From assembly GCA_001938485.1 (NCBI GenBank), contig MQRK01185281.1, positions 1,691-65,690 of the forward strand: 64,000 nucleotides of DNA, written 5' to 3'. Positions within the stretch are counted from its first letter, which is position 1; every line of letters begins with the position of its first letter. Below, piece by piece: positions 2,110-61,990 of this stretch. Below the pieces are notes generated by a model. That model was not told the origin of the DNA. It saw only the letters and a program-made list of their open reading frames with translations, and did no database searches. This DNA is from Girardia tigrina. Lineage: Eukaryota. The translations under genes and the position numbers were made by a program.

Positions 2110-2545
2110 GGGGTATTAAGAACACCAATTTGACTTTTTATATTTTTATTTAAACAACAATTTTGATTGTCCTCAAGACAATCTTTGTCTAAACTTTCGT
2201 ACATTTGCATTCAAAGCGAAATTGATTAATGCATTAATTCTCATTATTTTTTTAGCAAATGGGGAAATAAATATTTCAATAAACTCAAAACTTATTGGAT
2301 AATAATTAAAATAATAATTAATTATTTAAAAAATATTAATTTGATTTATTTATTAAATATTATAAAACTTAATTAACTTATTTAAAATTTTAATATTATT
2401 TGAAATTAAAAATAAATTTAAACATTACATATTTTTAGATGATAAGAATTAAAACATTAATCATCCATCTGGGTAGGAGAAACACATTTCCAAATCAACA
2501 TACACATTCCAACACCAAACATCAAACATTCAAATATTCCTCACA
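2110..2545 (-). repeat. TG-terminal dispersed repeat, copy A (LTR-like 5' end)
   Basis: Minus strand starts TGTGAGGAATATTTG and contains CCTACCCAGATGG; internal segment matches 44940-45000. Confidence 0.75.
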
Positions 2546-2549
2546 AGGG

Positions 2550-3323
2550 GTACTTAATACTCAGAACACAGTGAACGCACACCAGCTGTTTGGCTTAGAG
2601 TTTTGAGTTTATAGTTCGACCCTCTGCTTCGAGCTTCCAGTGCACAAGACCTTTGAAATTCCACAACACGCACATCTTTTTTCGAAACATTGAGTTGAGA
2701 CAACATGTTGAGCTGACTGACCACATTGCAGCCACTGCTTTCAGCCCACCGAATCGCGAAAGACGACCCATTTTCAGGACCCGTTTCAATTCGGTTTCTT
2801 AAGCGTTTATCTCGAGGGTTGGTGAGGAGTTTGCGGTAGAGGAATTGTGCTTTTGGAAGAACTGAGTTCTTCCTACAGTATGTGGGTACTCAAACTTGGT
2901 GGTTGTTTCACAGGGACGTGCAGCTTCTTCTGATTTACCACCGACGGTTGTACTCAGTGTGATTCAATTTCAAGACTGGTTTTACCTTACTTGAAGCGCT
3001 GGAACCACCATCAATTTGTGCAATTATTCACTACATTTTGACCTTTAACATCACATATTCCAAGAGTTAAGGCTTCCGCTGTAAGACTTCTTTTATAGGA
3101 GTAAATATAAATGTATCGAATAGTTGTCTTTTTTGTCTGTCATTTTACATGAAATATAACACACTATATCAATAATAAAAAATAATTTTGTAACAGAAAT
3201 ATGTACACCTATTAAAGATCTTTAAAATAATGTCAAAATTGGCGCCAGAAAGTTAATGTATAATAGAAATAGAAAAACAAATGGAACATTGAAGACTTTA
3301 ATAGTTTTTGGGACAACCTGTTA
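2550..3323 (-). mobile_element. Decayed mariner transposon, 5' part
   Basis: Minus-strand WWFQRFK.G, (W)VPH-like, KKMCVLWNFKGLVHW...GRTINS; TIR-like end at GGGACAACCTGTTA ~3310-3323. Confidence 0.75.
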
Positions 3324-3482
3324 AGGGATTTTTCAGCTGCTATATTTCGATTCCAAAGTTTTTCTTTGAAACTTTTGTTCTCGTACTTTTAATTTATGCG
3401 AAGAAAAAATAATTCTAAACGTAAATATATCTTTTATTAGTAGGAAATGTTGATGACGACTTATGAAGGACCCGGCGAACAT

Positions 3483-3522
3483 CCTCTGACGGCGCGAATA
3501 ATAGTCGCGAAATATTTTATCT
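3483..3522 (+). ncRNA. Degenerate minimal hammerhead-like motif (probable Penelope-like 3' end)
   Basis: CTGACGG (vs CUGANGA), stem GCGA/TCGC, GAAA; core mismatch and weak stem I. Confidence 0.35.
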
Positions 3523-4530
3523 TAATGTTTACATCTGCATCACTTTCATATTCATTTTTGATGTCTTAACTTTTTATATTTTTAATGATGCTTTGTTATA
3601 GATGAAATAACAACTTTTGGTGTCAGCCTCTGGAAATGATTCGTCAGCAGCAGGTTTGCTTGCTTCTCGAAATCGGTTAAACTTCTACTTGGGTTTACAA
3701 ATGTCTTCTGGAGCAAATCGAGTGTATTGATTCTAAGAAGGCTTTCAAACCGTGTTTGACATTATTCTACGAAGAGCGTTCAAATACTGAAGATGGTAAA
3801 CTGCTAGCAAGTTTACAAATTAACTGCGTGCTGTCGAACAATATCTCTTTTGATAGAGGTAAAATTATCACCTTTCTTTCAGTTATTTTTAATCTCCTCT
3901 TCTTTTTTTGTGAAATAAGTCGGTTGATTGACTCCGTCACTTTCGGCATTTATAACGCAGTCTCATCAACTCACGTGTTTTACTTTCTAAACGTACGGGT
4001 CCATACACCATTAATTTGATTCAAAAAGGACCCTTTTCATAGTGAACGAATTTCCGATACAGCAACAAGAAGTTGTATATTCTCCATTGCTTTAAATGCT
4101 AAATCAGACCTTACAGGGTGTAGAGCTTACTTGATGCGGTCAAAATTCTCAACTGCCCTCAATATTAATCAACTCCTATGCTTTGCTTCTGAGGAGTGGC
4201 TTACTTCTAGGATCGTTGCGATGTCCTCCCCAGTAAATGGAACGACCAACTTTAGGAATGACTGATGTCAATGACGCTAGAATATAATGTTCCGGAATGT
4301 TAATCCTAAGCAATAGTCCAATCCTCTATTTCAACAAAAATGTGTTTCCAAGTGCAAAAAAAGTGTTGAAGAACTTGGGTTCACGGAAAGAAAGGACGTT
4401 CATTCGACAGGATATTCTTTCAAAGGATATTACTACAAAATACATTTTTCGACAAAAGCATTACTCAATATTGTTATTTTAGCTAATTTTAAATGAGTTC
4501 CCTGCAAAATAAACAGTTAAATAAAGAGAC

Positions 4531-6130
4531 TTACATCATTTTTCCAAGATTCACAAACAAGTCTTCTTTATTATTGTCGGTTTGAAGAAAGAGATCAATG
4601 AGTCGAGTGTCTTGCGCCAGATGAGCGTAAAGACGCAGCTCAATTTGGAAAAAGTCAGCGGATACGTACGTGTAATTGTTGGAGGATAAAAACAACGATT
4701 TGACATCGATTGAAATTCCCGGAGTCATATCTTTATACTTGCTCCGAGGAAAGGCCTGTTTAAAACATGTTAGGACCAAAATAAGTTGTTTCGTTGTACT
4801 TGTAAATTGGGTTTCGAACAATATATCCGTCCGGTGATGGCAGAACTCTGGTCCCAGGTGCCGCAGATCCTTCTTTTGTCATGATCCATAAAAGACATGT
4901 ACGAATCAACATAAATTGCCCTAATTTTGTTGATCTATGCATTATTAGTAAACGATTAAAGGACACTCTTTGCAACAAAAATATTTGATACATAAAAAGC
5001 CTACCTTTGACCTTTAACAACAAGCTCGTAACAGAAATGAGACAATATAATAAATTATCGAAGGAAAACTGGAAAAAAAACTCACTTGTCGGTACTTGAT
5101 AATCAGATCCGGCAGCGGATGGAACGCTGCTAATTTGGAAAGAATGGTTTCGTTTGTTGAACGAATCTTAATAAGATTTTTAATCCCCATACTGCTTTGT
5201 CGCTTTTCGCTCAGATTATCGTGCAGCTTAAGCTTTGTATACAATATCTGCAAAGAAATATTAATGTCTTTCTAATGTGTTTTTGTAACTTCTCTCAAGC
5301 AAATCGGACTTGTCAGACATAACTGAGACCCCCCGGCTGCAATAACCTGATTCTCTAATGATTGGAGGACACTCTAAAAGGTCGATGTACCATCTTCGAT
5401 AAATCAGCAATAAATAAATCAGATAAAACCTTGGTATTAATTTGAAACTGTTTCCAACTGTCGAGATCAATAGCTATGCCAAAAAATTCAAGTCCTGCCA
5501 AAATAGCATTAACAGAACAGGAAATACGGATAAAAGCGTCCAACGAATTGAGACGTGTGATTTGACCGAGTAATCTATCGTAGAGATCAAACAGATCCAA
5601 CTTGTCGGACGATTGGTCAGGCTCCGTGACAGTACCCTGTGTTATACATTATTAATGCTGCTCAGCAGAAACAAGGTCAATTGGTATACGGGTGTCTACT
5701 CGTAAAAGTTGCTTAAAACAATATGAGAGTATCACGTATAAACTGGTATTTGTGTCTAAAATCTGATACTAGTATACAATTTTATTTACGACTTTATATT
5801 TTTACCCAGAATAAGGTCTTCTCGAGAAATAATGAGACCCTTATTTAACAGAACTGACTTAGACCTTACATTGATATGTTGTCCTTCTCTTTCCAACCAG
5901 TCTTCTTGGGATGCTTCTCTTTTCTCTCAAACTGTGAAACCAAATTACAATCGTCTTTTATACAAGTAGTAAACAGTAATGATCGAATCAAAAAAGTATT
6001 CATTTTGCTCAATATCCTCATTTATCTAGCTCGGTAAACGTTTGATGAAGAACTTCTTCTGATGAACCGCATCCTAATCTAGTTGTGTTTTATTTATATG
6101 CAATTTGATTTCTGCAACTGCCTCAATTTG
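4531..6130 (-). pseudogene. POLN: DNA polymerase nu (family A) partial, intron-containing, disrupted copy
   Basis: Exons give ILAGLEFFGIAID, ILYTKLKLH, STNETILSKLAAFHPLPDLIIKYRQ, WDQSSAITGRIYCSKPNLQ and motif A SADFFQIELRLYAHLAQD..LIDLF; GT-AG introns ~4757-4798, ~4935-5086, ~5249-5347; in-frame TAG at 5355-5357; motifs B and C not found downstream; 5' limit approximate. Confidence 0.8.
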
Positions 6131-6269
6131 ACTAAAATTGTGTTCCACTCACAAATGTAATAAACTATTTATTAAAAATAAAAGGAAATTTAGATGCCGT
6201 CAACGATACTTCGATAAGGAAACTTCCAGTAGTCTCATGGTTGGACATCCATGATACGGGTATTTTCAT

Positions 6270-6752
6270 ATGGAAGGTTCAACCACATTCAGAAACATCA
6301 CGAGAACATTTTCAAATAAATTTTGTTTATATTTGAAAAACCACCTATTAACAACATCAATACTAGTTTTACAACATTTGTTAATATCACAAGCGCACTC
6401 ACTATTTGACATTTTTCATGATCGATATATTTCTGAGTTCAAACTAATTATTTTCAATAAATGAAAATCTTTTAATAAAAATTATTAATTAAAAAGATTC
6501 TACTTGTTTAAAATGAAATCTAAACATTTTTAAAAAAGAACACATTAAATTAATATATTAAAATTTTAAATTACATTAAAAAATAAATAAAACATTCAAA
6601 AATTATTTTAAATCTTTTTACTTTAAAATTAAATTATTCCCAATTAGCTGAATCAAAGAAAATACCAATCATCCATCTGTGTAGGAGAGACACAATTCGA
6701 ATCAATATACAACATGCACAATATCAACACACAATTCAAAACATTCCTCACA
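6270..6752 (-). repeat. TG-terminal dispersed repeat, copy B
   Basis: Minus strand starts TGTGAGGAATG, has CCTACACAGATGG and a short ORF starting MSNSECAC near 6414. Confidence 0.75.
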
Positions 6753-7581
6753 CCACCTAGATCGTTTTCTGTCGAAGGATCAATACTTAAAACACGAATT
6801 ATAGGTACGATAAAGTCATTATTCTACAGTAATTCTTCGATCCACAAAAAAGCTAGAACTTTAATTTGAAGAGATAAAACTAAATAACAGTAACCTTTAG
6901 AAAGCACAAATCTAAAAGCCTCCATCAATTATGATGAATAACTGTGCATACATAGTTAACTACGATATTCACCATTGACACAGGGTAATTAATCATATAA
7001 TGTGTATCGAGTGGAAACCCAAAAAAATACAAGAGCTTCAGATACTCTCACATGGCTTTGGACGCAAGAGGTCTTCAGTGAACGGGTATGTTTCGGTTAG
7101 AAAGCATATCTTGCAACACTTTTTAGAGTATCAATGTATTCTTTGAAGACGTCATTCTCGAACAATACTCGCATCAAGATAAAAAAGCAGCATAAATACA
7201 GAAACACGGATTGCTGATAGGGGATTGAATAAATAAATAAATAATTCAATTTGAATGAAGAGCAAACTCTAGTTTAGACACTTTTAGAGAAATCCTTTTG
7301 TCGGGAGACTGATACTGCTCAAATTATTCAGTTATTAAATGATTTAATTAAAATAAGACTTAATGAATTAAAAGTAACAAATCACACTTTAATTTATCAT
7401 AAATAAAAAACATTTATTTACAAAAGATAATTTGCAAAATTTATTTTCTGTGATAAGTCGTACAATAAGAGAAAGATTATTTATCTTTGGGGTAAATAAA
7501 CGCGAAAACAAATAAGATAATTGAGAAGTTCAGAACAAAAGAAGATAATTTATTGAGACTTGCAAATAACAGTGGAAATGG

Positions 7582-7671
7582 GAGGAATACATGACGCAGA
7601 AGACGCGGGAAGGAGACTGAGATAAATACGAGGAATACATGACGCAGAAGAAGCGGGAAGGAGACTGAGAT
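7582..7671. repeat. 48-bp-period tandem duplication inside an orphan ORF remnant
   Basis: GAGGAATACATGACGCAGAAGAMGCGGGAAGGAGACTGAGAT at 7582 and 7630; LSLLPASSASCIP repeated in ORF 7550-7801(-). Confidence 0.9.
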
Positions 7672-10600: not shown

Positions 10601-10793
10601 AAGGAACACATTTCTAAAGATATCTTTTCCCTGTTTAAAGATGGAGAAATAGACATTCAAATAGTCGAAGGTTGCCAAGTCGAGTGTTTCACAATGTCTA
10701 AACAATTTTTGTGAAAGTCACAATAACAATAAACAGTTAACGTTTAATTTGAAATAAGGTTTATGGTCAATAATTAATAATGCCTTGTTAAAT

Positions 10794-11575: not shown

Positions 11576-11579
11576 ATGT

Positions 11580-12942
11580 AGAGTTTGGAATACTGATCAA
11601 TAACCTCGGAGACTTGGTGTGAAATAAAACCTTCACAATATTCAAACACATTTTATTTTGAACAACATTTATTACTAATATGAGAAAATTATGCATCAAG
11701 TTTATATTGTCACAGAACCAAAAGTTCATTTGCTGCTGCATTGGATTATCTTTTGCACAGATGGAATAAACATTTGGCAACCCCATGAGGTTACCAAAAA
11801 GTTTATTCCATCTGTGCAAAAGATAATCCAAGGCAGCAAAAGAACTTCTGGTTCTGTGACGATACAAACTTGACATATATTCCTTGATATCAGCTCCACA
11901 CGAAAAATGACACCCTCTTAAGTTTTTATAGGTAGAAGTAACTGGGAGCAATGTTAAGACTATAGAGTGGGTGTTCTAGGTTCAAAAAATTATATTTATC
12001 AATTATTTCTAGCGAACATTATGCGGATTGAATAGATGGATTGTCAATCAATAACCAAATTGGAGTGTGTGGTGTCATAGGTTTCTTCCTTTTGCACTCA
12101 GTAACAAGGGCACTAAAGCATTCTGCATTGATGGTACTACTTTTTAGTAAGAAATCCCAACTGACAACAGCCTTTCGTAACTAGAATACAGACAGTATGA
12201 ATTCGCTACTGTAAGACGTTTCACTTATCATCTTGAGTAAGGCCCTCTTGTCTTTGTAACGCCACTCAACAGACTCTTTCTTGGTCACAGAAAGATACAA
12301 TGAGAGTGATGTCTCGTCCTGAGTAATATTAATGTCAAGGAAAGTTGAACCATATTACTTTGAAATTTCCAGGTAGGCCAGAGCTGACCGAAGGCGCGCT
12401 TCTTTCATTTTTGAAATCAGGAATGTCAGCACAAATTTGTTTCATAAGTTTCTGTAACCAAGTTCTGTTAATATAGTATGCGCAGAACCGTAGTTAATCT
12501 TCAGTTGAATTGCTAGTTTGCTTACTTGTATTTAACGATCACATTCGACAATCTTTTCTCATTCGATATTTTTCTCATCTGAGATTTTATTTAGTCTTCC
12601 TCCTCTGCCGGCATAGTTCATTGATCTCCTACCTTGCTTGAACTCCTCCAGTCAATAAAAAGCGGTCACACCGAAGGGAAAATCTTCACCATAAACGTTT
12701 TCCATACTTCTCATGGTTTCATCTGAACTTTTTCAAAGTTTATAAAGAATTTAATTAAGCTGAGGTACTCCACATTATCTATTTTCTTCAAAATACCGCC
12801 AACTAAAATAAACTGAAATGATCCATTAAAATGAATGATTTTTTTCGTACTAGTGATAAATGCTGTTCAAAATAAAAGTTATTAGGACATTGCAAATTTT
12901 TATTTTATACCGAATCTTAGAGGTTATTGATCTAACTACGTA
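11580..12942 (-). mobile_element. Full-length decayed mariner (DD34D) element
   Basis: TIR-like pair GATCAATAACCTC..A..T.GGT.T.AAATAAAA at ~11596-11630 and ~12900-12942; ITQDETS, LLIDN, LEHPLYSLNIAPSYFYL (HPPYSPDIAPSDF), RWNK C-terminus; many stops. Confidence 0.85.
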
Positions 12943-13874: not shown

Positions 13875-13960
13875 TTATTTATTTATTTATTTATTTATTT
13901 TATTTATTTATTTTTGATTTTATTCTTTTTTATTTTATTTTGATTTATTTATTTATTTTC
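13875..13960. repeat. (TTTA/TTTTA)n microsatellite
   Basis: Direct reading. Confidence 0.9.
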
Positions 13961-15322: not shown

Positions 15323-16440
15323 ATCTATTTCAATTAAACACTTTAAATATTACCCAATTTTTAATTATGTAATCTATACTAATATTACCGTTTACTACTT
15401 TAGAAAACGTATTTAGAAACAATAATTAAAAAAAATTAAGAGAGCCAACAATATTGAATTTATGATTTTGACGGATTATTCCAGTTTACATATTCGTCAA
15501 TACAAATTTATATTTGATGCAGGGTGAGTATATGAGGGTGGGACTAACCACTTTAAAAATTATAATAAATTTTGAGAAATATTACGTTCAGTTTCTTACT
15601 CTTCAATATAATTTTGTGAGGCTGCATTAAATAACTATTTTAAACTTTCTTTTTTTCTATTGAGAAGCTTCAAACAAACAATAAATAATTTTATAATTGA
15701 AACAATAGTTAGAAATTAAGTTAGAAATTTAGATCAGTCCTTAAATATCTCTTTGCAAGACATCATCAGGCTGTCCATTACGGTGAAGCCCACGTTCTAA
15801 TAGTTCATTGGCAATGAATATTTTAATAATATATGGTTAAATTTCAGCGTTATTTTTTTGAAATTGGACAAAGAAAATAGGATGGATGGCAGCATCCCAG
15901 ATTTAGAACAGTCATATCAGCGTTATGCTTTAAAAAGACTTTTTTCCATAATAATATTAAAAAATAGTAAGGAATGATGGTAAGGGATGATCAAAGAAAA
16001 TATGGTGGCCCGTAACTCAATGTCAAATCTCGACTTGTCATAAATAAAGACCAAAATTAAAACAAAAAAATAAAAAATTCATTTTTATTTTTTATATATT
16101 CTTCATAATTACTGCTAACTTTTCTTTGAAATTTCAACTAATAATTAAATCAAAAAATCAACGAACAATAGAAAAAACAAATTAAAATTTTCAAAATTTA
16201 TTGATGGATTTTGAAACAAAAAATAATTTTTATTGATTAAAAATAAACGAGAAACTAAAAAAAATAATTTCTTTATAAAAAATTGAACATTTGAAAAAAA
16301 AGAAAAAATAAATAAAATTAAAATTAAGAAATTGTTTGGAAAAATCGATAAATTTAGGAAATTTTTTTTAATAACTTAATTTTTATTTATTCAAAAACAA
16401 TTTATTTTTCATATAAACACCATTTAAAAATATATATTTT

Positions 16441-16479
16441 GATAACATATTTCGACGGTTTAACCGTCATCATCAGATC
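16441..16479 (-). ncRNA. Minimal type-I hammerhead ribozyme motif
   Basis: GAT-CTGATGA-T-GACGG TTAAA CCGTC-GAAA-TATG-TT-ATC. Confidence 0.75.
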
Positions 16480-16700
16480 ACTGATTGTGTTCTTTTTATT
16501 GCTTTTATATGAGAAATGAATGATTATGTAATAACTTGCGTAAGTCTAATCGAAAACTCTTAACAAATTAGTTGAGAGTGCCGTTTGAACATTGATTTTC
16601 GAATCACATGATCTTATCAACAATGCTTCATATGACACTCTCTCCCAATAATTTTTAAAAAGCTTGCACAAAATCTTAAAATCATTTACGCTCATATTAT
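16441..16700 (-). mobile_element. Penelope-like element 3' fragment (GIY-YIG C-terminus plus pLTR)
   Basis: FKILCKLFKNYWERVSYEALLIRSCDSKINVQ matches the 50.9-kb copy; followed by a hammerhead motif. Confidence 0.85.
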
Positions 16701-25199: not shown

Positions 25200-25419
25200 A
25201 AGCTTCTCCAAAAATCGTTGTAGTTGGTAAAAATACGGATTTCTTCAAAATTGATGAAATGGTCTTTCTATCTATAACATTTCATGGTTCTTCTAGTGTT
25301 AAAGAATACAAACACAATCTTAAAAGTATCAAAGTCATTCAGGTTTGTTGCGTTTCATTATCATTTAGCAATTTCTAATTTAAGCAGGAAAAAGGAAAAA
25401 ACAGATTGAAATCACAGTA

Positions 25420-25502: not shown

Positions 25503-25553
25503 CATGCAAGTCGCTTGGTGCTGCACAAAAACTTGCATATAGGCAAATATTTA

Positions 25554-25655
25554 CAGTAGGTATTGCCTATATGCAATTCGTCTATGTGCTTCAGGAAAAA
25601 TTGCACATATGCAATAATTGCATATAGACGAATTGCATATAGGCAATACCTACTG
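25554..25655. mobile_element. 102-bp foldback MITE (Tc1/pogo type)
   Basis: ~36-bp near-perfect TIRs CAGTAGGTATTGCCTATATGCAATTCGTCTATRTGC, TA on both sides. Confidence 0.9.
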
Positions 25656-26321
25656 TACTATAAATATTTATTATATATACCAAAAATTCTTTATTTTGTC
25701 TATAAAAATACCAGAAAAAAAGCCAAAACAGAAAAGATGATTTTTTATACTTAATTATTCAACAAATTACAAAGATTTGTTTAAATGGTTATTTTTTCGG
25801 TGTTTCTTTAAAAATTGGAACAATGCCCATGATAATGTCCATAAATTATATTTTCAAACCATTTGTCGTTTTATTTCTTCTAAGGCTGGGTTCTTTCAAA
25901 TTTTCGTCTGGGTTCCATCCATCCTTGGTTCTGGAGAGCCACACACACTTTTTCTAGAAAAATATCCTCTGAGGCTCTTGGTCTCGTTGTCACACAAAGT
26001 TATGACAAATTAAAAGGATATTTGGAAAATTTGACGAATATATAAAACATAATAACAAATCGCGGTCGTTAGTTGTTAAAAAAACAGAGGCCCATTTACA
26101 AAGTAAACATCCCTTTTCGATTTCAGTCTATCCTTACGAAAAACTTATCCGAATTTAGATAACTCTTGAGAAGTTGAATTTCAGTTCTTAAAAATAAACA
26201 CTAAAGTAAGAACTTCATGGAGGAATAAGCGAAGGTTTATTTTTAGGTTTATTGGCATTTTACTAGGTAACGTATATGGCGGGAATCCAGCCTCCCTCTG
26301 TGAATCATAATATACCGCATA

Positions 26322-28707: not shown

Positions 28708-29230
28708 TGTGAGGAATATTTTAAATTGTATGAATGCGTGAATGTATTGATGTTGTATGTGGATTTGAGTATCTTGAAATTAGAATGGTGATGATCCACG
28801 CAGATGGAAATGGTATTTATTGTATTGAAAGTGATTGACTACTCGAACATAATTAAAAAAATCATTTGATAAGTTTATATTTTTAAATTAATAATTAAAA
28901 TTAAGTTTAATATTTTTTTAAAAACAAAACGAAAAGTATTTAATTAGATTTAAATTTAATTCATTTTTAAAAATTTTAGAGATTTTTTATTATTCTGAGT
29001 TTTTATTCAGAAATGTTTAAAATTATTATTTTAAATTAATGTTTTTAGAAATTAAATATTTTGAAAAGTATTAGAAAAATTGTTCGAATCATTATGATTA
29101 AAAATAGAAATTTAAAAACCAATTAGAGCAATGTCAAACAGTGAAAGATCTTGCGGGAGTTGTGATGACTCTAAATGTGATAATAATAAAAATGCTAATG
29201 AAAATTGTCTCAATGTTCTTAACATATATT
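28708..29230 (+). repeat. TG-terminal dispersed repeat, copy C
   Basis: Starts TGTGAGGAATATTTT; alignable by eye over ~510 bp with 61471-61985; ORF MSNSERSCGSC at 29131. Confidence 0.85.
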
Positions 29231-29922: not shown

Positions 29923-29964
<42 letters not shown>

Positions 29965-44619: not shown

Positions 44620-45090
44620 TGCGAGGAACATTTTGAATGTTTGAACTATGTTGATTTGGAATTGTGTCGGTCCACCCAGAAGGCTGATTGATACTTTATT
44701 TCGTGTTACCTGCAAATATGCAATGTCTAAATTTATTTCTAATTTAAAATAATTGTAAAATTTGAAATAAGTTAATTAATTTTATTAAAAAATTTTAAAT
44801 AAATAAATTGAATTAAAATTTTTAAAATTATTTTTATTCATTTTAATTTTTAACCAATAAAATTTGTAGTATATATTTTAAATAATTATTCAATCTCCAT
44901 TTGCTCTGATAATTAGATTAAAGTCATTAATTAATTAGAAGATGTAATTGTACGAAAGCTTTGACAAAGATTGTCCTGAAGATAATCAAACTTGTAATGT
45001 TAATTGGTGTTCCAATTAATTACCAAAAGTTAAAATTAAATTAGAGGAAAAGATACTTTCAATAAATTTGAAGTTGATGGTGTTAGCACA
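44620..45090 (+). repeat. TG-terminal dispersed repeat, copy D
   Basis: TGCGAGGAACATTTTG start, CCACCCAGAAGG box, TGTACGAAAG..GACAAAGATTGTC shared with copy A. Confidence 0.75.
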
Positions 45091-45839
45091 TTGATGTTAG
45101 GATCAAAGGATTCGATCATCAGTGCTCACACAGCGCCCTCTGCCAGTAATTATCGAATTGTGAACACAAAATCTTAAAATTACTTACGTCAACTTTACTA
45201 TTCAAACACTTCTTTCTGTGTTGAGCAATAATAATATTATTTGAGAATTATTTTATAAATAATAAAATATTTTTTAATTTTTCGTACTATTAATACCACA
45301 TTCCAAAGATAAACCAAACAATTAAGATTTTATCTCCAAATAATACAAAAATAAATTTATTCAACGTTGCCAATTTATTCTCCGATTTTATTACATTTTC
45401 TGTGCCAAAGAAAGTAGGAAAATTAATAATATAAATAAAGAAATAATATTCCAAATAAAGTCAAGCCCCAGTTGGAATATCTCTGATCTTTACCAACAAA
45501 ATACGAACAGTTATTTAAATAAATTTTAATTAAATTAATAATTATTTTAATATTTCTTGGAAATTTTTCTTTAATGAAATAATATAAAAATGAAAAAAAA
45601 ATTCATTTATCAAAATTTATCATTTTGGTGATCATTTTGTCATATAACATTAATCCATTCATTAATTAATTTTTTAAAAAATAATTAAAATAATAAAAAA
45701 ATAAAATATAAAATTCTATAATATTTTATTACATATTTTTCAGAATTTTTTTTAATAATTTTTTGAGATTTACAATTTATCACAATTTTCCCTTTAAAAA
45801 TAATGTAACCGATGGTCAAAATATTACAAAATATTAATT

Positions 45840-46793: not shown

Positions 46794-47474
46794 TCATTCG
46801 GATAAATATAATTAGGGGACAGCAACCCCCCTCGGTCTCTCCCTATTTCTATATCATAATCTACCGGAATCGATAAGAAAAATGAAGTTTTATTTATTTA
46901 TTATTAATTGTTTTATATTTTTTAAAAATCTCCTTCGTCGAGTGATTGAAAGGAAGACATTGCTGAACTCTGCGCAGAGTCCCAGAGAGAGATGCCCACA
47001 AACAATTGACAAACAATCAATCAGAGAATCTCTCCCTTCAATCCAAACAATTAAATCGTATTTCTCCCATCCCATTCTCCCAAACAATTTGTAATTGTAG
47101 TTTCTCGGCCCATTCAACGACAAATCTGAAAAAGAATAACAGATTAAGAAAGAAGAGAAAGTTCTAAATGAAACTGGTTTGTCGAGCAGCTACAGCCTCA
47201 TTCCTATTTCTTACTTCATCAATATTGATATGTTTCCCACCTGCAATGTGTCCTCGGGAGATCGGTTGATCGATGGATGATTCTGATAATGATGATGATA
47301 ACAATAATAGTAGTAATAATAATAATGGACTCGGTTGATTGAGATAGAGATGGAGTGTTGTTGGCGTTGCAGCGCGTGGGAGGATTCTTCTGCCGGTGGA
47401 GGCCAATCACATCTCTTCTGCCACTCTCTCGCTGACAAGCAATCTTTCTCACATTTTCCCTTAGTTTTGTTTTC

Positions 47475-49015
47475 ATGGCTTATCCTTTTGATTTCAATGC
47501 GAGCAGTAACAAGTCATTAGAGAAATATCAATGGCCTTTCCTGGGTTTATTTATCATACCTCTGTGCACAATCTGGGGTAATGCCCTCGTATGCGTCTCG
47601 GTGTTCATTGAAAAGAGATTGCAAAATAGATTCAATTTTTTTCTGGTGTCTCTAGCGATCAGTGATTTGCTTTGCGCCCTGCTCGTCATGCCGGTGTCCG
47701 CGTGGAATATGGTGAACAGTAAGTCCCTCGCTTTTCTATGCTCTTTCCAGGTCACATTGATCTCATTTCAGGTAATAACCTAAGTAATGTCCCTCGAGGA
47801 ATCTGCCTCGCCTGGTACAGTCTCGATGTGTTCTTTACGTCGACAACTATCATTCACTTATGCTCAATTTCATTAGACCGATATTTCGTGTTAAATAATC
47901 CTTTAAAGTATCACAACACTCGCGTTCGATCATCATTACCTCTTAAAATTAGCATCGCCTGGCTTATTCCATTCTGTATTGCTTGTCCTTTATTTATATT
48001 TGCTTTGAGACTAGATAATAGTGCTATGGGACCTATCCAAAAACAATCGCCCGAAGAGAAGTCCTTATGGAATCAAACGATGTTTCTCCAGTCGGACTCT
48101 TACAAAGGATGTGGGCCTCATAACGTCTATTTCATCATAATCGCGACCGTCACAACATTTGTGTTGCCTCTCATGATCATGATAGTTACGTATATTCTCA
48201 CTGTTTGTTCAATCATCCGCCAGACAAACCAAGCGCGCCAGAATCTCTATCCGGACCAATCTGTCCTAAAGTCCAAACCTCATACGCATATTAGGATCAC
48301 TGACGATAGTCAATCAATGAACGATACAACAAATAGTATAGAAAACGTCTCGTACTCCTTGATCACGGTTGATGACAACAAGTACTTGAGCCACTCCTCT
48401 CTCAGCATTAATTCGTTTGACTCTCCCTCGAAAAGAGATTCTTTTAAAATTCCTTCTCGTCACAATAAAGAATTCAAAATCCATTTGAATGTTCCTCCGG
48501 CGGTTGAAATTCGACGAAGCTTCGATTTCACCCCGAAAGGAAACTGTATCATTAAAAAACAATCGTCCTTGTCGGAAAAGAGTTTCAATAGCTTCAGAAG
48601 TACCTTGAAAATGAGTCCGTCCCATTACGTCAGTGAATTGTCCAACAAGAAAAGCTTTTCGAGCTCCTTTCGAATTCACAAACAATCAAGAAACAGCGCC
48701 AAGCGAACTTTGGCCGCTATGAATTCGGGAAAGAAAGCCGTTCAAGTTCTTGGAATACTTTTTGCTCTATTCCTTCTTTGTTATTTGCCTTTCTTCGTGA
48801 TTTACCTGCTGGACTTCTTCTGCACCCGGTGTCAAAGCATGACCGGACCTTTAGTTCCGAAAACCGAGTGGATAGGCTATTCAGCCTCAATGCTGAACCC
48901 GATCGTATATCACATCTTCAACCCGACATTCAGAAACACCTTCAACCGCCTCATGAGGGGTCAGTGCTACAAGGTTCGCAAGGCGATCTCCACAAACACA
49001 AAAGCGTATGTTTGA
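47475..49015 (+). CDS. 5-HT2-like serotonin/aminergic class A GPCR; exon 1 47475-47718, exon 2 47772-49015 (alternative in-frame acceptor at 47751), ~495 aa
   Basis: Seven TMs: GN..V in TM1, EKRLQN..NFFLVSLAISDL..LLVMP, TM3 LDVFF..IIHLCSISLDRY with Asp3.32, TM5 TFVLPLMIMIVTY, KKAVQVLGILF..PFF, TM7 WIGYSASMLNPIVY..FN; N-glycosylation sequons NAS and NKS; GTAAGT donor at 47719. Confidence 0.93.
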
Positions 49016-49075
49016 TTAGTTGACCGCAAAGAGAACAAAAACGGTTTTGTTTTAACAATCGTGATCTGTAAATTG

Positions 49076-49081
49076 AATAAA
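49076..49081 (+). terminator. Putative polyadenylation signal of the GPCR gene
   Basis: AATAAA ~60 nt after the stop codon. Confidence 0.55.
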
Positions 49082-50469
49082 TAATGTTTCATGTCAACTG
49101 CTGTATCAACTTACATAGCGTAATTACCGAGCGTCATTCCCGATCCAAATAAGGAGAGTGCTCAAGAATCCTTCCGTCCCTTTCGACGGTTTACTATTTC
49201 AGTTCCCTAAGACCTAATCAACCAAAAAAAGATAATTAACTAATTAATTAAGTAATATTTTCCCTATTTTCCTTTTGCATTTCTTTCTGTGTGACTCCTC
49301 CTCTTTTGGAAACAGAGAAACTTGAAAATAATTTGTTGCGGGTCGACCATCTCAACGAGGGAAAGATGATATCCAGCAATGGTCGAGTGGGGAATGTTCT
49401 AAAATTGTTTTTGTTATTTTCTTTCCCTTTTTGTGCTGAAATAGCAAGAGTAGGAGGACGGAGGAGTGAGGAGGAGAAGAAAGAAGGAGAAAGAAGGAGG
49501 ACATCTATACGTATAATTATCAGCTCCCAACGCGGTGTCCTCTAATATCTTTAATTACTCAGCTTCCTGAATGCGGGACCGTTTCCGAATGATCTGACTC
49601 TTTAATTGTCCCTTGATTCCCATGTCTCTTTCTCCATTCTTTCTCTCTTTCCCTTCTTGCTTCACTTGCGCGATTTGAGTTCGAGAATTAATCTGTTGTG
49701 CTAATTGATCCATCGGAACGGAAAGTTCTCACAACATTCTCTTTGCCAAATCAATCCACCATAAATTCTCACAAATAATTGTCTTTCTTGAAAACAGATT
49801 AATTAATTATTAATTAATTAACGTTATTTAAAAAAACAACCACAAAATCGTTAGAGAAGAGAAACAGAAAAATTATTTATAATTATTTAATTATTTCTTT
49901 CATTAATTTATATTAATCGTTTACAAAGATAATCTAAAATTTATTTTAATTAAATTAATTAATTGAATAAATAAGTTAATTAAAATTGTAAATAATTATA
50001 TAAATAAGATATCTGGTATTCGATAAATGTCTTTTAAAAGATTGTTCAATGAAATATGGGGAGATCGAATTGGGGAAGTATTTGCGATCCGAGGGACATA
50101 ACCTGGTTAGGGGGGCGGGAGAGGACGGAGGGGCGGACCGATCTGTGCACGAATCTGTGAATAAACAACCGTATTTCGCTTTCGCCTCTTTCATGAAGCG
50201 AAAATAAACATTTGCAAAAGCAGTTCTTCGTTGGGGCCATGTGGCCAGCACAGATTCGCAATGTATTTTTGACGAATATTTCCGTGGGAAAACGGGATCA
50301 CCCTAATTAGCTGTGGGGATGTAAACCGTCTGGAGGGGGTATATTTTTGTTTTGTGTTTTCAGTCTCATTATTCAACAATAAATGAAAGTAATAATTATT
50401 GATCAGCTTCAATCCGGATGAAAGTTTTATATTAAAAACAATTTCCATACTTTAAAAAATATATTTCAA

Positions 50470-50508
50470 GACAATATATTTCGACGGATCAACCGTCATC
50501 TTCAGGGC
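50470..50508 (-). ncRNA. Minimal hammerhead ribozyme motif
   Basis: CTGAAGA-T-GACGG TTGAT CCGTC-GAAA-TATA-TT; one stem I mismatch. Confidence 0.7.
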
Positions 50509-51112
50509 ACTGATAATCTATTTCCTTGTTTGCAAATGGCATGGAATCACGCTAAAACATCATTAGATATTAATAATATGCCTAAATATTGATTGATTGT
50601 ACCTTATTTTGAAGGATTTATAAACTTTAAAAATGCATTGCTAAAAGCAACTAACAATGAATTAAATGTAAAATTATATCACGATCTCATAAAATTCAAA
50701 ATATGTTCAGTAATAAATCTATTACACCTTTAACACTTTGTTCTGATATTGTTTATGAATATAAATGTAATGGGTGCGATGCCACATACATTGGAGAGAC
50801 TGCCCGTCATCTCTGTTAACGAATTCAAGAACATGGTCGAAAAGAGAGTAAGAGTAATATTGCAGAACATAGTAAAAAATGTAAATGTGATGTTAAAATT
50901 GGTAATTTCAAAATTCTGTGTAAGCATTTTGACAGTTATTGGGAGAGAGTGTCGTGTGAAGCATTGTTAATTAGGTCACGTTGCCCTAAAACCAATGTTC
51001 AATCGGCAGTCTCAACAACTTATTGAGAATTTTTGATTAGCATGATTTCATGCAATCGATTACATAATTATTATTTTACACTTATGCAAAGGTGAATTAA
51101 TTATTAATCAAT

Positions 51113-51151
51113 GACCTGAAGATGACGGTAGATCCGTCGAGATATGTTTTA
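51113..51151 (+). ncRNA. Degenerate hammerhead motif (GAAA changed to GAGA)
   Basis: GAC-CTGAAGA-T-GACGG TAGAT CCGTC-GAGA-TATG-TT. Confidence 0.6.
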
Positions 51152-54100: not shown

Positions 54101-57100
54101 CCATCATCAATTATGCCATACAGCCCATCGGATTTGTTGACTGAGGGAATTCCATCAATTAATTAATCAATTGAAATGAGGAATTTTAATTTCTTGTCCT
54201 CTGATGCGTTTGGGGTTGACTACAGAAATCGGATATTACTTTTCTTGCTGACTGACTCTCAGATTCCTCCACTTATTCACCCCGTTCTTTTGTCAAGACC
54301 TCCCTCCTTCAACCGCCTAGCCGACACAATACCCACTCGACCACTTCAATCTTTGACCGCTCACTCAACCTTGCCTAATTGATCTCGCTCCATTGACTAT
54401 TCTTCGCTTTCACTCGCGTTGTCTCCGTTCCGGTCGATCCGCATCGCTGGAACAAATCGCCGGTTCTATCAAAATATAAACTTCATACGTCACTGGACAC
54501 AATAGAACAATATTTGATTAAAAAGTAATAAAGTCGATCAGCGCAGTCACAAATGTATCAGTTTATGCATTTATATCGGTCACGACCATTATCAAATGTG
54601 TATAAATGTATAAAACTAATACTCAATGAGTTGCGTTTTCGTTGCGTCAAAGTCCGACAAACGTCATCAAAATAATAAATTATCAATGAAACGATTGACT
54701 TGTTTATATATGAAATCGTCTCGCGTGTTCGCCGTGTTCGCCGAGTGCTGCACACCGGTGACGTAATCTCGCCATCGATTAGTAACCGATTTATTTGCGA
54801 GATTCTGCACCATCATCGACTGCGGTGTGTTCGCGTCATCGAATATTTGCGTATTCGTGTGCACACGCGTTCGCGGATTAATGATGAATCGAGGAGTGAT
54901 TGTGTCAACTGATTGCACTGTGCTGTCGGTGCACGATTGTTGTCCGAGAGTCTGTGAGTCACCGGCGGAATCTGTCGAAGATTCGCTCTTCCGGATGTGA
55001 TGACGACGACATTCATTATCACGTTTACTATTTGTTGTCCGGTTATTGCGGTCTTCAAACACAGCGAATTCTCGTTCTGATGCTGGTTCTCGAAGACACC
55101 GTAAATTGTCTCATCTTAAGGGGGTGGTTACTATTTTACGTATGGGATTCAGGGGGACGAGCAAACATTAGAATTGTTAGAGCTTCTAATGGCGACCAGG
55201 GGGTTACTCTTTTGTCCGTGAACTAAATCCACGGTGATTCTGTTCTCTTTCTCCTAATCTGTCTTCTTAATATATTTATCTATTTTATTTTTATCTGTAC
55301 AAAATTCATATGGAACCGCTCTCTCGACTCATCAATAATTAATTTGGAAAACTCATCGATGTTTGAGCACGGACAAATCAGTCTCGCTCTCTCGGGACAA
55401 ATTTGTCTTTTTTCTGACTTTGCCAAATGAAAAGAAAATAATTTTCTTTAAACTTAAGATCAAACAAACCAGGAAACGTTTCCCCCCTCGAAAATTAAAT
55501 GAATTAAAGATGGAATTCTTCCTTGTCGAGGAGGTTGATGAACCATGCGAAAGGGGTCATGAAGAGGCAGCTTATTCACCCCTCTTTCTACGGAAGTAAC
55601 TTTGATCTTCTCTTTCTTTCGCTGAAACTTTTGATTTAAAAGGGACTTAAACGACCCTCACTACCTGGAAGTTTGCAACGAGAAGAGTAGTTGTAGCCCT
55701 AAGTACCAGAGATGAGTTCTCTCGTTCAAATCTTCCAAGAAATAGTGTTCGGGGTCGATTGAAATATCGCCTATATTCCGTGAATGCATTTGCGTGACGG
55801 ATTGAAGAAAATGTAGAAATTATTCAAAATCGTTTCAAAAAAACAAAGATTGCTTGAGTAGATTGAGGAGAATGAGCTTGCACGAGACTCATTAAATATT
55901 TATGGGTCGAATCGTTTGTTTATTTTCATTCTTTTGTTGGGGAGCACTGACGAAAGAGTGTTGTTTCTATCGCGCTAGGCGGCCGTAACTAATGCTTATC
56001 GATTCTGGGTTGACGGGGTTCCCTTTCTTGGAGTGTCATTGTTCCCTAAGCAAAGTCACAGGGGGAGGATTCACATATAAATATTATAAATACTTAAAAA
56101 ATTGATAAAGTAGGAAAAGACAGAGCAGTCGACACACGAAAGATTTTCTAATTATGAGGCCCCGTAAAAGAGCAGGCCCCCTCATGAATGCCTTACCCCA
56201 ACAACGAGAGCCAGCAAAAATTTTATCGATTTAATTTTTGTTAATAATATTTTTCAAATCATTTTTAATATTTTTTAATTCAAAATGTTTTTATTCGATG
56301 ATAATTTTTTGTAATTTTTATTAATTTGCTAAAATTAACTTCGCGGCCAAACTTGTTCTGTGCGGTCTTTTCTACGCGTCTTTGGTTTCTGATGTCCCTG
56401 TCTTTTTTCCGACTTCTTTGCTTACGGCTCTTAATTTTGAGGGGGCACGAAAAGGGACCCACAAAACAGGTTTGGATTTAATATTTTAAGTGTCAACGTC
56501 GGAAATTGACAAATAAAAATAATAAAATAATAAAAATTAATGAAAATGATTTATTTTCCAAAGTTTGTTAAACTCTGAGAAATCTTTAAACCAAACATTT
56601 TACGTCTTTAATCAAACAAATGTTACACCTTCTAACTACCAGTGAGGTCTCACTTGACCCCAAGAAAACTTCGAGCAATTACATGATGCGACGGAAAAAT
56701 ACGGTGAACTTCCCTGTCTGAGATCAGGTGTGGGTAAAAAATGAGATAAGAAATGAAGGGAATGGCAGATATTAAGCACGATCCACCATCATAGGAAGGG
56801 TTCATGAGAGAGTTATAAACTCGAGAAAAAAGACATAAAAGAAAAGTGAGAAATGTCGAAAATTTAAAAAATTTTACAGAAAAGGGCCAATGTTTGGAAT
56901 TCAGAAATGTTTTTTAAATTTTGTGAAAGAATGTAAAATTAAATACACCAATTAAAATGTAGAAGACTTATAAAATATAAAACTATTTGATGATTGTAAA
57001 AGAAATTTTACAATTAATAAAATTTAATGAAACTATTAAATGATTGTTGATGTTCGTATAAAATTATGAGATGTGATTAAAGGTAATTAATAGAGAATGT

Positions 57101-58189
57101 TGATAAAGATTTTTAAATTTATCAAATTTCACGAAATGATTAAATATTTGATAATGTTAAAGTAACTTAAAATCGATAAAACTTATGAAAGGTAAAATGT
57201 CGGATCTCACAACTCATGCAACTGGAGCTGTGTAGTGCCTCTTGCTGACACGGCACAGTGTGACTGCTGTAGAACCGTTTGTCACTAAGCACTAACAGTT
57301 ACACTTTTGAACGAATATATTAAACCAAAAAGTTGTATTGGGGTCGCTAGCGATCGAACTGGTAGTTAAAATTTTAAAATTCCAACTTAATTTATCAAAT
57401 AAATGATTTAATGTTTATTTTTGTGCTTCTCGATTTATAATAAAAATGATAAGACAAATAATAATTACCCAAATCGATGGAGTTACATTGACTTCTTCTT
57501 TCTTTTTCCCTTCCAAAATCGATCTTCAGAGAGACGGATAACAATGGAGCCAAATGTATTGGGGCCAATAAACATCGGGTTGAATAAGACAAAAATCCCC
57601 CAGCAAAAAAAGCGGATCAATGTTAATTGCGGCACATCAATGCTTCGCAAAAAAAACATTTGCGAAGAAATACTAATGGGCAGAAAGAATTTCCTACAGA
57701 GGACATCTAAATAACTGGCAAAAATACCGTGATTGTCCAAAAATTTCCCCCATTAATAAAAGTTTCAATGCAAATCATGACATTGCTTGGAAGTACTTAT
57801 GCTGGCGAGCAATTATTTTTCGCAATGACAATTAATAAAAGCGACAGTAGATCAATGTCACACGAAATACGATTGTAATTTTGCGTCAAAGTGTCTTAGT
57901 CATCTATGACTGCGAAAATACCACCTGTTAAGAAACTACTTCCCCGCTTTGCATTAAAATTTACGTACTTTCCAATAGCTATAATCACGTTTTATTTCAT
58001 TGGCATTTTTATCTTTCTTCTTTCTTTTTGACCTTATCCGTGGGTACACCCCAATATACACAAGCTTTCGTCATATCTCTTTATTTGTAGCCTATTTTCT
58101 CAGACATTCCATGTTCAATCCACTCCATTCTTTTAAATTGTCTTCCATTGTTTCTTTGGAACTTCAGCGTCCTCCTCTTGATGGTCTCT

Positions 58190-58621
58190 ATTAGCAACAT
58201 CACAATTTGCGTGTAAACATTTATTAAGAACACAAACATTTTCACTAGCAATTTCATTCTTGATTAATATGTTTTGTACCTATATTCAAATCTTTAAATT
58301 AATTAATGGGACAAAATTAATATTAACTTGTAATTTTCCAAAATTTTATGGGATAAAAATTCGTTAAGTAATTTTAAAAATAAAAATCAGTTCTGAAAAT
58401 ATATTACATTTAATAAGTTAAAATCATTTACTGAAAATATTATTAAAATTCATAATTATCAAACTTTAATTAATTAGTACTTTAATTTAATATCATTAAA
58501 TTAATTTCATTGGATTCAAATAATCAATCAATAAACATATCAATCCCATCTGAGTAGGAGAGTCACAAATCTAAACAGTATACAAACAACAAATTTACAA
58601 CATTCCAAATTATCCATCACA
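58190..58621 (-). repeat. TG-terminal dispersed repeat, copy E
   Basis: Minus strand starts TGTGATGGATAATTTGG and contains CTCTCCTACTCAGATGG. Confidence 0.7.
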
Positions 58622-59311
58622 ATCTTTTCTATTGTTCCCAGTCTTTTAGATAGTTTTATAGGGTCGTTATAACTATAATTTTGTTCACAAAGGAGGCATA
58701 AGTGTTTACAACCTGGTGATTAGATTATTGTGTTAAAATTTTAACATTTTTCATGCGTGCAACCCGCTCAAAATTTTCAAGTTGTCCTGGGCACGTAGTG
58801 AAAAGATTTATGCTCCCCGATTTACATGAGATTAAAGATAAACAGATAATTTTTATGTTAAAAATTCAAAAATTAATAAAAATCGAATTAATTATTAATT
58901 TTTTAAAGTAGTAAGAAAAGTTGAATTCGTCAACAGTCGAATTTTTCATCGGGGAAAATTTTTAATAAATTATTTTTCCATAATTAAATTAAATTAATTA
59001 TTTATTTGGTTGAGAGAATTCACAAATTTTCGAAAATTCAAATTTATTTAATTTAGAGAAAAATATTTTCGGATTTTTCATAATTTTAAAATAAATTATT
59101 TCCAAAAAAACATGTCTTTTTTGTCTTCTGTTTCTTTTAAGTTTTCTTCTTTTTTTGTCTTTTTCTTTTTTTCTTTGTGAATAAATAATTAAAATTTTGA
59201 ATATTGATTTTTAGACGTTTTTTCTTGTTATTTTTTTAATTAAAAATAAAAAAAGCCTAATAACAGCCTACCGCTATATAAAAGGGACTTAAATCTGAAA
59301 TTTCAATTAGT

Positions 59312-59346
59312 CAACTGAAGATGCCAATATGGCGAAACTAGTATTG
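59312..59346 (+). ncRNA. Apparently intact minimal type-I hammerhead ribozyme
   Basis: CAA-CTGAAGA-T-GCCA ATA TGGC-GAAA-CTAG-TA^TTG: 3-bp stem I, 4-bp stem II, palindromic ACTAGT stem III, GUA cleavage triplet. Confidence 0.8.
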
Positions 59347-59425
59347 CAAAATAAAAATAAATGTTTGGAAAAATGGCTATTTTTTTGTTTTATTAATCCG
59401 ATTGCCATTGGAATTAATTGAAAAG

Positions 59426-59455
59426 TATATGTATATATATATATATATATATATA
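59426..59455. repeat. (TA)n microsatellite (another at ~29930-29962)
   Basis: Direct reading. Confidence 0.95.
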
Positions 59456-61470
59456 AAGTAAGCTAATAAAACAAATGGAAAAAAAGCAAAAAGTAGTTGA
59501 TGAAAAGCCCCGACTCATCGACTATCTCATCCGTGTATGCTAACACATTAATCTTGCTCGACCGGTGCAGCAAGTATTACGTGGCTTTTGGCAAAAAAAG
59601 TAATTTTGAAAGATCGCTGATAACGTTTTTCTTAGAATTTTCTTCTTACGAAAAATGATAAATCATATACAAATGTTAGGGAACATGTTTGGAAAGCCTG
59701 TCTAAATGAAACAGCTCCTCGACCGAAGATGCGACTGAAGATGACCTTGGTCAAAGGTGCAATGGAAAACATCTCGATCAGAGCTGCTACACAAATTATA
59801 TCGTTGCGGTCATTAAATGAGTTATAACTCTCCAATATATTGAGAAGATCAATTAACAAGTAAATAATTAAGGATCAACAAACTTCATGATCCTCAAGTT
59901 GTGAAAGAAGGAGAATCTTTCATTGATAATTTACTGCATCTTTCAAAGAACTGAAAACTTTTACCATTACATATCTTCTTTTCTTGTATATTAATTCATT
60001 TAAATTAAAGGTGTAATCATCTTACTTTTGTTTAATCATGTTTTTAACTTGTGTTAAAAACGAGTATTGGTTGATGTAGATAAACTAATTATAAAAGGGG
60101 TCGAATAATATAAATATAATGTAAAAAGTTTAATTTAAAAAATAATAAATAACAAATATAATTACAAGATAACAAATAAAGAAGAACCTCACAAGATTGG
60201 AGCAAACAAGAAGATAGATTTTTATAATGAATCAAATATCTTACGTCATGCGATTTGGGCGGTGGGGTAAAACTGATCGGCGATACCAGGAAGAAGGACG
60301 ACAAAAATAATAATTATCGATACGAATGTTTCAACGAATCTCTCGGAAACGATCTCCTGAGAAGTGTTAAATTTTCGTTTAACGAATTTATCTGAAAAAA
60401 ATAATTTCAATTGTCCCTTCACTGGTTGTTAAAAGTTCACTGCAACAGCCAAAGCAATGCTAAATCATGGAACATCCGTACATGGTTGGTCGTTTTTTAC
60501 TGTGGGTACGAAGAGATATCGCAAGCAGAAAGCTGACAACTTCGTGGGAGGCCTATCGGGGGCTGCAAGTGTTTTTTAATTGGGATGGACCCTCTAAAGA
60601 GCCTATGGCTCAGTACCATTGAAAGTAATGGGAGACCCACGTCATTCACCTAGTAATAAAGTTCTTTATCAGTTAATCAGCTCATAATATAGAAACTGTC
60701 TGCACGCAATCATTATAATCGATCTAGGAATATTAACCGAAAGAATTTTTCTGTCCTTTTTTATAATTCTACGACCTCCGGATACAGAAGTGTGACCTGA
60801 AATAAATTAAGAATAACAAGCGCTCGGATAAGGAGCGTATTGATTAGCTTACCTTGATTTTTTACCGAACGAGAAATCGAAGCTCGTTTCAATAATATGA
60901 AGTCACAGAGAAAAGTTTGTCTGAAGAGACAATATTATAGTATTAATTCTTTTAATTTTAAAATTTATAACTGATAAATCATTCGTGGCAACATCGTTCA
61001 TCAATAGCGCCATAAATAATTCAAAAAATTAAATTAATGATAATGATAAATCAAAATTATAATAATTTTAATAATTTGTTTCTTCCTTCTGAATCCATCC
61101 TACAGGAGACGGTCGCTGAAATCATGACCTCCCAGTAGGCACTGGAAAAGAGAGAAGAAAACATAAAAATAATATAAAATAATAATCCCTTTTACAAAAA
61201 ATAATAAATGTTAAAATATACAAAAATATATAACATACATATGGGCTAATATACCGTATTCATTGTTGTTATATTTCGTTAAATAAACAGAAAATCAGAT
61301 ACTTATATTTTGTTTGCTCTTATATGTTTATATTTGGAAAAAACGATGACTTTTGATGCATGTATATTTTGTTTGTCTTCGTTTGTTGTTTACTTAGGAA
61401 AGACAAACAAAATGTCTCGAGACTGAAAAAAAGAATCTCAAATGAGAGAAATCAAGTTGAAGAAAGTTTG

Positions 61471-61990
61471 ACTGAGGAATATTTTAAATTGTTTGAATGT
61501 GTGAATGTATGGATGATGCATGTTGATTTGAGTACGTTGAAATTAGAATGGTGATTCTCCCACCCAGATGGAAATTGGTATTTATTGTATTGAAAGTGAT
61601 CGACTATTCGAACATAATTAAAATAATCATTTGATAAGTTCATATTTTTAAGATTAAAAATCAAAATTAAGTTTGATATTAAAAAAAACAAAATCATTTA
61701 ATTAGATTTAAATTAAATTCATTTTTATAATTTTATAATTTTTTTATTATTTTGAGTTTTTATTGAGAAATGGTTAAAATTTATTATTTTTAATTAAAGT
61801 TCTTATGAAGTAAATATTTTAAAAAGAATTAGAAAAATTGTTCGAATAATCATGATTAAAAATAGAAATTAAAAAAGCTAATTTGAGCGATGTCCAACAG
61901 TGAAAGATCTTGCGAAAGTTGTAATGACTCCAAATGTGATAATAATAAAGATGCTAATGAAAATTGTCTTAATCTTCTTAACATTGACAA
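61471..61990 (+). repeat. TG-terminal dispersed repeat, copy F (close relative of copy C)
   Basis: TGAGGAATATTTTAAATTG start, CTCCCACCCAGATGG box, MSNSERSCESC ORF start ~61890. Confidence 0.85.

Follow-up and report, generated by a model that had tools for sequence, protein, structure and literature searches.

The 64,000-nucleotide stretch of Girardia tigrina DNA analyzed here (positions 1,691 to 65,690 of contig MQRK01185281.1, assembly GCA_001938485.1; hereafter the window) carries six dispersed repeats, designated A to F. An initial annotation of the window had described them as related copies of one family with a TG start, a conserved CAGATGG box, an AT-rich tract and a Cys-rich micro-ORF (ORF, open reading frame). 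The six repeats are real, abundant and mostly ordinary: they are solo long terminal repeats (LTRs) of a compact Gypsy group. We are confident that they are complete LTRs of a 5.1-kb Ty3/Gypsy group, that they came to stand alone, likely by recombination between LTRs, and that the micro-ORF likely represents the first 22-32 codons of Gag. The features of the six copies are as follows.

Copy A, 2114..2545, minus strand: solo LTR of 432 bp, TG...TA, start TGTGAGG, target-site duplication exact (5/5)
Copy A, 2465..2471, minus strand: CAGATGG box
Copy A, 2114..2210, minus strand: ATG-started frame of 32 codons without a stop before the LTR end, likely the Gag N-terminus
Copy A, 2150-2145, minus strand: AATAAA, read as Asn-Lys
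Copy B, 6346..6752, minus strand: solo LTR of 407 bp, TG...TA, start TGTGAGG, target-site duplication exact (5/5)
Copy B, 6673..6679, minus strand: CAGATGG box
Copy B, 6346..6412, minus strand: ATG-started frame of 22 codons (MSNSEC...) without a stop before the LTR end
Copy C, 28708..29224, plus strand: solo LTR of 517 bp, TG...CA, start TGTGAGG, target-site duplication 4/5
Copy C, 28801..28807, plus strand: CAGATGG box
Copy C, 29131..29224, plus strand: ATG-started frame of 31 codons without a stop before the LTR end; AATAAA at 29185-29190
Copy D, 44620..45018, plus strand: decayed LTR of an older, A-related subfamily, start TGCGAGG; 3' end approximate, frame broken
Copy D, 44677..44683, plus strand: variant box CAGAAGG
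Copy E, 58189..58621, minus strand: solo LTR of 433 bp, TG...TA, start TGTGATG, target-site duplication 3/5; upstream ATG lost; AATAAA at 58225-58220
Copy E, 58546..58552, minus strand: CAGATGG box
Copy F, 61473..61983, plus strand: solo LTR of 511 bp, C subfamily, starts TGAGG, ends CA, target-site duplication exact (5/5)
Copy F, 61565..61571, plus strand: CAGATGG box
Copy F, 61890..61983, plus strand: ATG-started frame of 31 codons without a stop before the LTR end; AATAAA at 61944-61949

All six copies were found where they had been placed, although copy F begins one TG short, at 61473. The LTRs of the window measure 399-517 bp and have a GC content of 19-21%, in agreement with the AT-rich tract. 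When the window was searched with 109 natural genome copies no seventh copy was found. The internal region of the parent element has no match anywhere in the window and the six copies are therefore solo LTRs. The proposed subfamilies C/F (87% identity) and A/D (77-82%) hold, but B and E do not form a pair, their identity of 63.5% being like that of A and B (64%; shuffled 54%). Genome-wide, identity between subfamilies was 58-65% (shuffled 52-55%) with the exception of A and D (82%). Contigs from other sequencing runs end at 2114 (copy A) and at 6752 (copy B); one reads from the copy A edge at 2114 into the primer site of the parent element, and another from the copy B edge at 6752 into its polypurine tract. 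None of these contigs spans either insertion to provide an empty-site allele.

Solo LTRs and their 5.1-kb parent element

The copies had been taken for the 5' ends of long LTRs with no matching other end. They are LTR 5' ends, but the LTRs are complete at only 0.4-0.5 kb. When C, A, B and E were searched against the genome, the matches to each broke off at a single position, after 517, 432, 407 and 433 bases, respectively, so that every subfamily has a sharp second end 407-517 bp in; the 2,762-5,051 first-pass candidates per query are not copy numbers. The anticipated CA 3' end is present in C and in a sister family, H, whereas A, B, D and E run from TG to TA. Family H has a 301-bp LTR with the same primer site, represented by 15 loci, and a target duplication in its one solo copy.

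Ty3/Gypsy elements leave solo LTRs, which arise by recombination between the two LTRs of an element, and generate 5-bp target-site duplications. From 120 loci sampled, 23 duplicates and 13 copies joined to a primer site or purine tract were removed, leaving 84 stand-alone copies, among which one further copy of the latter kind (L030) remained. For the D loci (n = 20), 6 with unparsed ends, 1 duplicate and 1 misparsed locus were left out. An exact 5-bp duplication flanked 51 of the 84 stand-alone copies (mean for shuffled pairings, 0.85), and 69 matched at 4 or more of 5 positions (shuffled mean, 4.4). Exact duplications of 4, 6, 7 or 8 bp were each absent among the 84. Three C-type LTRs in mixed orientations were also seen within 1.7 kb (L006/L007:322-2031).

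Some copies run into TGGCGAC... on their 3' side and others have GAGGGGGA on their 5' side. The combined pattern of LTR end and primer site gave 1,457 genome matches and the control none. In 64 of 68 junction matches (not de-duplicated), 10-13 nt of the primer site, or 11 nt with a single bulge, are complementary to the 3' end of the host tRNA-Arg(ACG). The polypurine tract adjoining the 3' LTR reads GAGGGGGA in 22 of 32 junctions and the remaining junctions hold variants of it. Elsewhere in the genome (L207:790-829), the 3' half of tRNA-Arg with its CCA is present as DNA, as expected from a reverse-transcribed piece of tRNA.

LTRs of types A, B, C and E were each found adjoining the gag-pol internal region. 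Pfam domains in this region are zf-CCHC, an aspartic protease (under the curated cut-off), RVT_1, RT_RNaseH, Integrase_H2C2 and rve, giving the order gag, protease (PR), reverse transcriptase (RT), RNase H (RH) and integrase (IN). Twenty regions were fetched around integrase matches, and 6 of them have two LTRs in direct orientation around gag-pol, with exact flanking 5-bp duplications in 4 of the 6. The uninterrupted two-LTR copies are 5.1 kb long. Whole LTR pairs are 91-98% identical, indicating insertions of mixed, fairly recent age. The primer site, the target duplication and the linked RT and IN genes, which the initial annotation had named as things to look for, are all present. Identity with a named library entry apart, the outcome that the initial annotation had itself given as refuting it, an ordinary LTR, has in substance come about.

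Two of the six two-LTR copies have no clean target duplication. The same is true of copies D and E, no duplication being recognized at the flanks of copy D. These exceptions weigh against the interpretation as LTR insertions.

Pol lies in the -1 frame relative to gag, whose end it overlaps, and in 12 of 14 copies the heptamer G GGA AAC precedes it; from the general slippery-site rule, we take this heptamer to be a -1 slippery site, at which Gag-Pol would be produced by frameshifting. The integrase frame reads through the polypurine tract and, where the tract has five G, stops at a TGA formed by LTR bases 3-5, the position of the pol stop codon in most copies. In many database relatives Pol ends likewise or a few residues into a TGTGAGG-like start. 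No env ORF was found in the copies examined, in which the integrase reaches the polypurine tract and 3' LTR.

Compared with solved structures, Pol was nearest to Ty3 (E 1.8e-98), followed by foamy virus (1e-35) and murine leukemia virus (1e-29), BEL/Pao not being among the references. A Gag model built from 7 sequences (predicted local distance difference test score, pLDDT, 47) was discarded in favor of one built from 52, whose capsid fold was nearest to dArc and Ty3; these matches were weak (E 0.008-0.04, none at or below 0.001), and the Gag profile pointed, also weakly, to the same capsids. A two-LTR copy was covered in 30 of 30 bins by contigs of 4 out of 4 public runs, one of them filed as RNA; this does not prove that the element is transcribed.

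Close homologues in the protein collection carry no family name. A description of this group was not found in a literature search that ran without most subscription journals and Repbase Reports, and the accessible portions of PMC12440569, PMC5035971, PMC9503155 and PMC4202319 give no placement for the element. One A-type element of about 3.4 kb with LTRs 98% alike (L124:6138-9527) has its pol region replaced by an unrelated frame without a Pfam match, which to us looks BEL/Pao-like.

The LTR frame as a probable Gag N-terminus

The ORF start reported for copies B, C and F (MSNSE, two residues, Cys) was confirmed; copy A differs (MQMYE...), and copies D and E have lost theirs. However, the micro-ORF is not an ORF of its own. 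It is free of stops to the LTR end and, in 5' LTRs, runs on through the primer site into gag in the same frame, the junction Met consisting of the last LTR base, A, and the TG of the primer site. The micro-ORF is likely the N-terminus of Gag, in a layout like that of Ty1, and translation from the LTR ATG is probable on the evidence of the sequences. The open frame from LTR to gag was seen in the A, B, C-like, E-like, G, H, I and J lineages. In 84 of 109 LTRs the gag frame contains an ATG-started stretch of at least 20 codons, which the two remaining frames show in 0 and 10 LTRs, respectively, and a shuffle test of the length of the LTR frame gave P values of 0.02-0.06 per lineage (8 lineages, non-independent).

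The modal distances from AATAAA to the LTR end are 28, 37, 40 and 43 nt, all of them in one frame in which AATAAA reads Asn-Lys; a few single copies are off by 1-2. Both TA-ending (A, B, D, E) and CA-ending (C, H) LTRs preserve an Asn codon ahead of the junction Met. Among related Gags, 56 were examined (homologues shorter than 250 residues and P0108 were left out) and 48 have a recognizable junction, the junction pattern having misplaced two (P0112 and P0134). An extension of at least 5 residues upstream of the junction is present in 41 of the 48, and 37 of these 41 extensions end in Asn, the codon from the LTR terminus (expected 14-43%). Of 2 loci from a metagenome scan with P0019, one has this junction in its DNA together with an upstream ATG in frame; the scan with P0112 gave no relatives.

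Several observations speak against a translated extension. No codon-position bias was found in it: mismatches between A and G at the three positions are 0.39/0.40/0.44, compared with 0.03/0.19/0.49 in gag proper. The ratio of nonsynonymous to synonymous substitution rates (dN/dS) in the extension is below 1, but this is not frame-specific and C2 vs C3 gave 0.95; 7 frameshifted or short copies were left out of the gag comparison. The TAA at the LTR terminus closes one alternative frame, and the third is open for 25-37 codons in B, C, D and E, so that the openness of the gag frame is by itself weak evidence. Furthermore, the second in-frame ATG, at the junction of LTR and primer site, could be the start; 7 of the 48 database Gags were parsed as starting there, the database starts coming from gene callers. 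One sister junction (L270) lacks an upstream ATG.

In a rival reading the copies are still solo LTRs, but Gag begins at the junction ATG, and the Cys-rich frame ahead of it arises incidentally from AATAAA and TG-rich poly(A) signals. Besides the lack of amino-acid-level selection, this would fit a predicted structure of low-confidence coil for the extension (pLDDT 46-56), the restriction of Cys richness to this subgroup (at least 2 Cys in 6 of 27 long extensions, all six from the subgroup) and the near invariance of the junction Met, which is fixed by the primer site anyway. We nevertheless consider it unlikely. A and G, though about 40% diverged, both have the upstream ATG at -31/-32, the length from AATAAA to the LTR end changes in multiples of three, and the upstream start recurs in 41 of 48 distant Gags. 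Scanning to the junction would moreover be hindered by the 3-5 out-of-frame ATGs found between both starts in 6 of 8 lineages.

The Cys-rich extension might alternatively be a selected Gag module of this subgroup, a lipidation or metal-binding tag, which solo LTRs could express fused to host sequence. Each of 8 lineages has 2-4 Cys (shuffle P 0.0005-0.016 for length and 2 Cys), and a Cys lies at most 4 residues before Asn-Lys in all 5 full-length close homologues. However, the spacing of the Cys varies among subfamilies, the extension shows no codon-position bias and Cys-free extensions suffice in distant relatives, which makes a selected module doubtful. It is similarly doubtful that one LTR-encoded tag would double as poly(A) signal and lipidation or metal-binding module, with tens of thousands of solo LTRs each offering an E-box promoter and an open start frame into host DNA.

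Under the favored reading, in which Gag begins in the LTR, transcription would start in the AT-rich middle of the 5' LTR, and ribosomes would initiate at the LTR ATG and read across the LTR end and primer site into gag. The AATAAA 28-43 nt before the LTR end would serve as the poly(A) signal, the same bases encoding Asn-Lys, and if so U5 is very short. Full elements would later be reduced to solo LTRs by recombination between both LTRs.

The CAGATGG box and the abundance of the family

The box had been placed roughly 60-90 nt into each copy. It lies 70-94 nt in in A, B, C, E and F, but copy D has CAGAAGG at 58. Its conservation above background was borne out genome-wide: CCWACNCAGATGG gave 18,510 matches and its reversed control 29, and all of 30 sampled matches belonged to these LTRs. 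No other GC-containing 7-mer reaches 60% of the copies in all four of A, B, C and E; CAGATGG is exact in 83 of 97 copies, and it recurs in subfamilies G, C2 and C3. By contrast, the 301-bp LTR of sister family H contains no CANNTG, and CAGATGG was not found upstream of the H, I and J junctions.

The absence of the box from family H makes it likely to be a promoter element of the subgroup and not an integrase site. CAGATG is an E-box, the motif of basic helix-loop-helix factors, and the most likely role of the box is that of a U3 site for such a host transcription factor in this subgroup alone. An integrase-binding site, as the initial annotation had offered among its readings, or a conserved RNA structure needed in replication might also account for a 7-mer kept so widely among the subfamilies. 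Both are very unlikely, since the box lies 58-94 nt inside the LTR, far from the termini where integrase acts, since H lacks it and it was not found upstream of the I and J junctions, and since no folding signal was found around it in any of the six window copies (z -1.6 to +1.5 vs shuffles, the structures differing).

One copy per about 10 kb had been thought to imply a major genomic family. The family is indeed major, but that density is local: exact CCWACNCAGATGG occurs about once per 77 kb in the 1.43-Gb, partly redundant assembly, a figure that misses all of subfamily C and part of the other subfamilies. The window holds 3 exact motifs compared with 0.83 expected (P = 0.05).

Gypsy solo LTRs are routine and the useful points are modest. 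Within its 0.3-0.5 kb the LTR accommodates the stop codon of pol, a conserved E-box, the poly(A) signal and the likely start of gag. Should the LTR start be used, a large Gypsy lineage would share a Ty1-like layout, and gene models with Gag starting at the primer site would be too short. Each solo LTR would then be a portable promoter whose open start frame might run on into host genes.

Known elements and other features of the window

The element has the Ty3/Gypsy features tested and works like Ty3. In the accessible text of PMC4974528, Ty3 (Ty3/Gypsy, Metaviridae) shares with it a length of about 5 kb, two overlapping ORFs and the order PR-RT-IN; Ty3 is also the best solved-structure match of Pol and a weak match of the capsid fold. 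Ty3 differs in its tRNAi-Met primer, where the element here would use tRNA-Arg(ACG), and in its +1 frameshift, where pol here lies in the -1 frame. Unlike Ty3, the present element has its primer site inside the gag frame, two CCHC knuckles and many LTRs ending in TA.

The gag of Ty1 (Ty1/copia, Pseudoviridae) starts inside the 5' LTR, as follows from a primer site within GAG. The part of PMC4974528 available likewise places the Ty1 primer site inside the GAG ORF. The primer site within gag is shared with the element here, whereas the PR-IN-RT order, the tRNAi-Met primer and the +1 frameshift of Ty1 are not; Ty1 belongs to an unrelated superfamily and the common gag-in-LTR layout is thus likely convergent. 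The Drosophila 412/mdg1 elements have a tRNA-Arg primer site beginning TGGCGAC, although no paper combining these terms was found; they exceed the present element in length, and a long leader separates their primer site from gag. The likeness to the element here lies in the tRNA-Arg primer.

Burro/GYPSM1 of planarians is described, in the sections of PMC6431247 available, as Gypsy-like, with thousands of copies and CCHC knuckles in gag, all points of likeness, and as longer than 30 kb with a 4,873-residue ORF1 and an env-like region. It was ruled out, as the present element is 5.1 kb long and its integrase ends at the polypurine tract, leaving no room for env. An Errantivirus or other env-bearing Gypsy element was ruled out by the lack of an env ORF in the copies examined. 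Ginger DNA transposons have TG termini and a Gypsy-type integrase; Ginger and miniature inverted-repeat transposable elements (MITEs) were ruled out because the unit stands as a direct repeat on either side of gag and RT, accompanied by a primer site and a polypurine tract. The TG starts, the 7-9 inverted-complementary bases among the terminal 12 of the unit and the thousands of short copies with target duplications might recall a non-autonomous DNA transposon, either Ginger-like or a MITE, or else the start of a giant or long-LTR element, much as first proposed, but the two-LTR copies, with direct repeats around gag-pol, primer site and polypurine tract, and the 5.1-kb parent have already refuted this, and its probability is practically nil.

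A host gene with a DNA_pol_A domain (E 4.9e-10) lies between copies A and B on the minus strand (4531-5648). Contigs of run X7 skip 4754-4799, 5247-5290 and 5373-5430 within it, with CT..AC ends, as for very short minus-strand introns. A rhodopsin-family G-protein-coupled receptor (7tm_1, E 7e-33) is encoded on the plus strand at 47436-49015 and presumably resembles an amine receptor. Positions 1-115 hold 5.5 copies of a 21-bp tandem repeat with GTTGCCATGGTAAC-type palindromes, which we take to resemble the RFX X-box. Broken pieces of a mariner-type transposase (Mos1-type helix-turn-helix) lie at 247-1948, together with a 92-bp duplicate. A second dispersed repeat family, 69-88% alike and unrelated to the LTRs, occurs at 16423-16690, 45055-45188, 50451-50514 and 50905-51148, one piece standing directly after copy D. 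Long near-perfect hairpins are present at 11696-11873 and 25552-25657, with arms of 41+42 bp and 38 bp, respectively.

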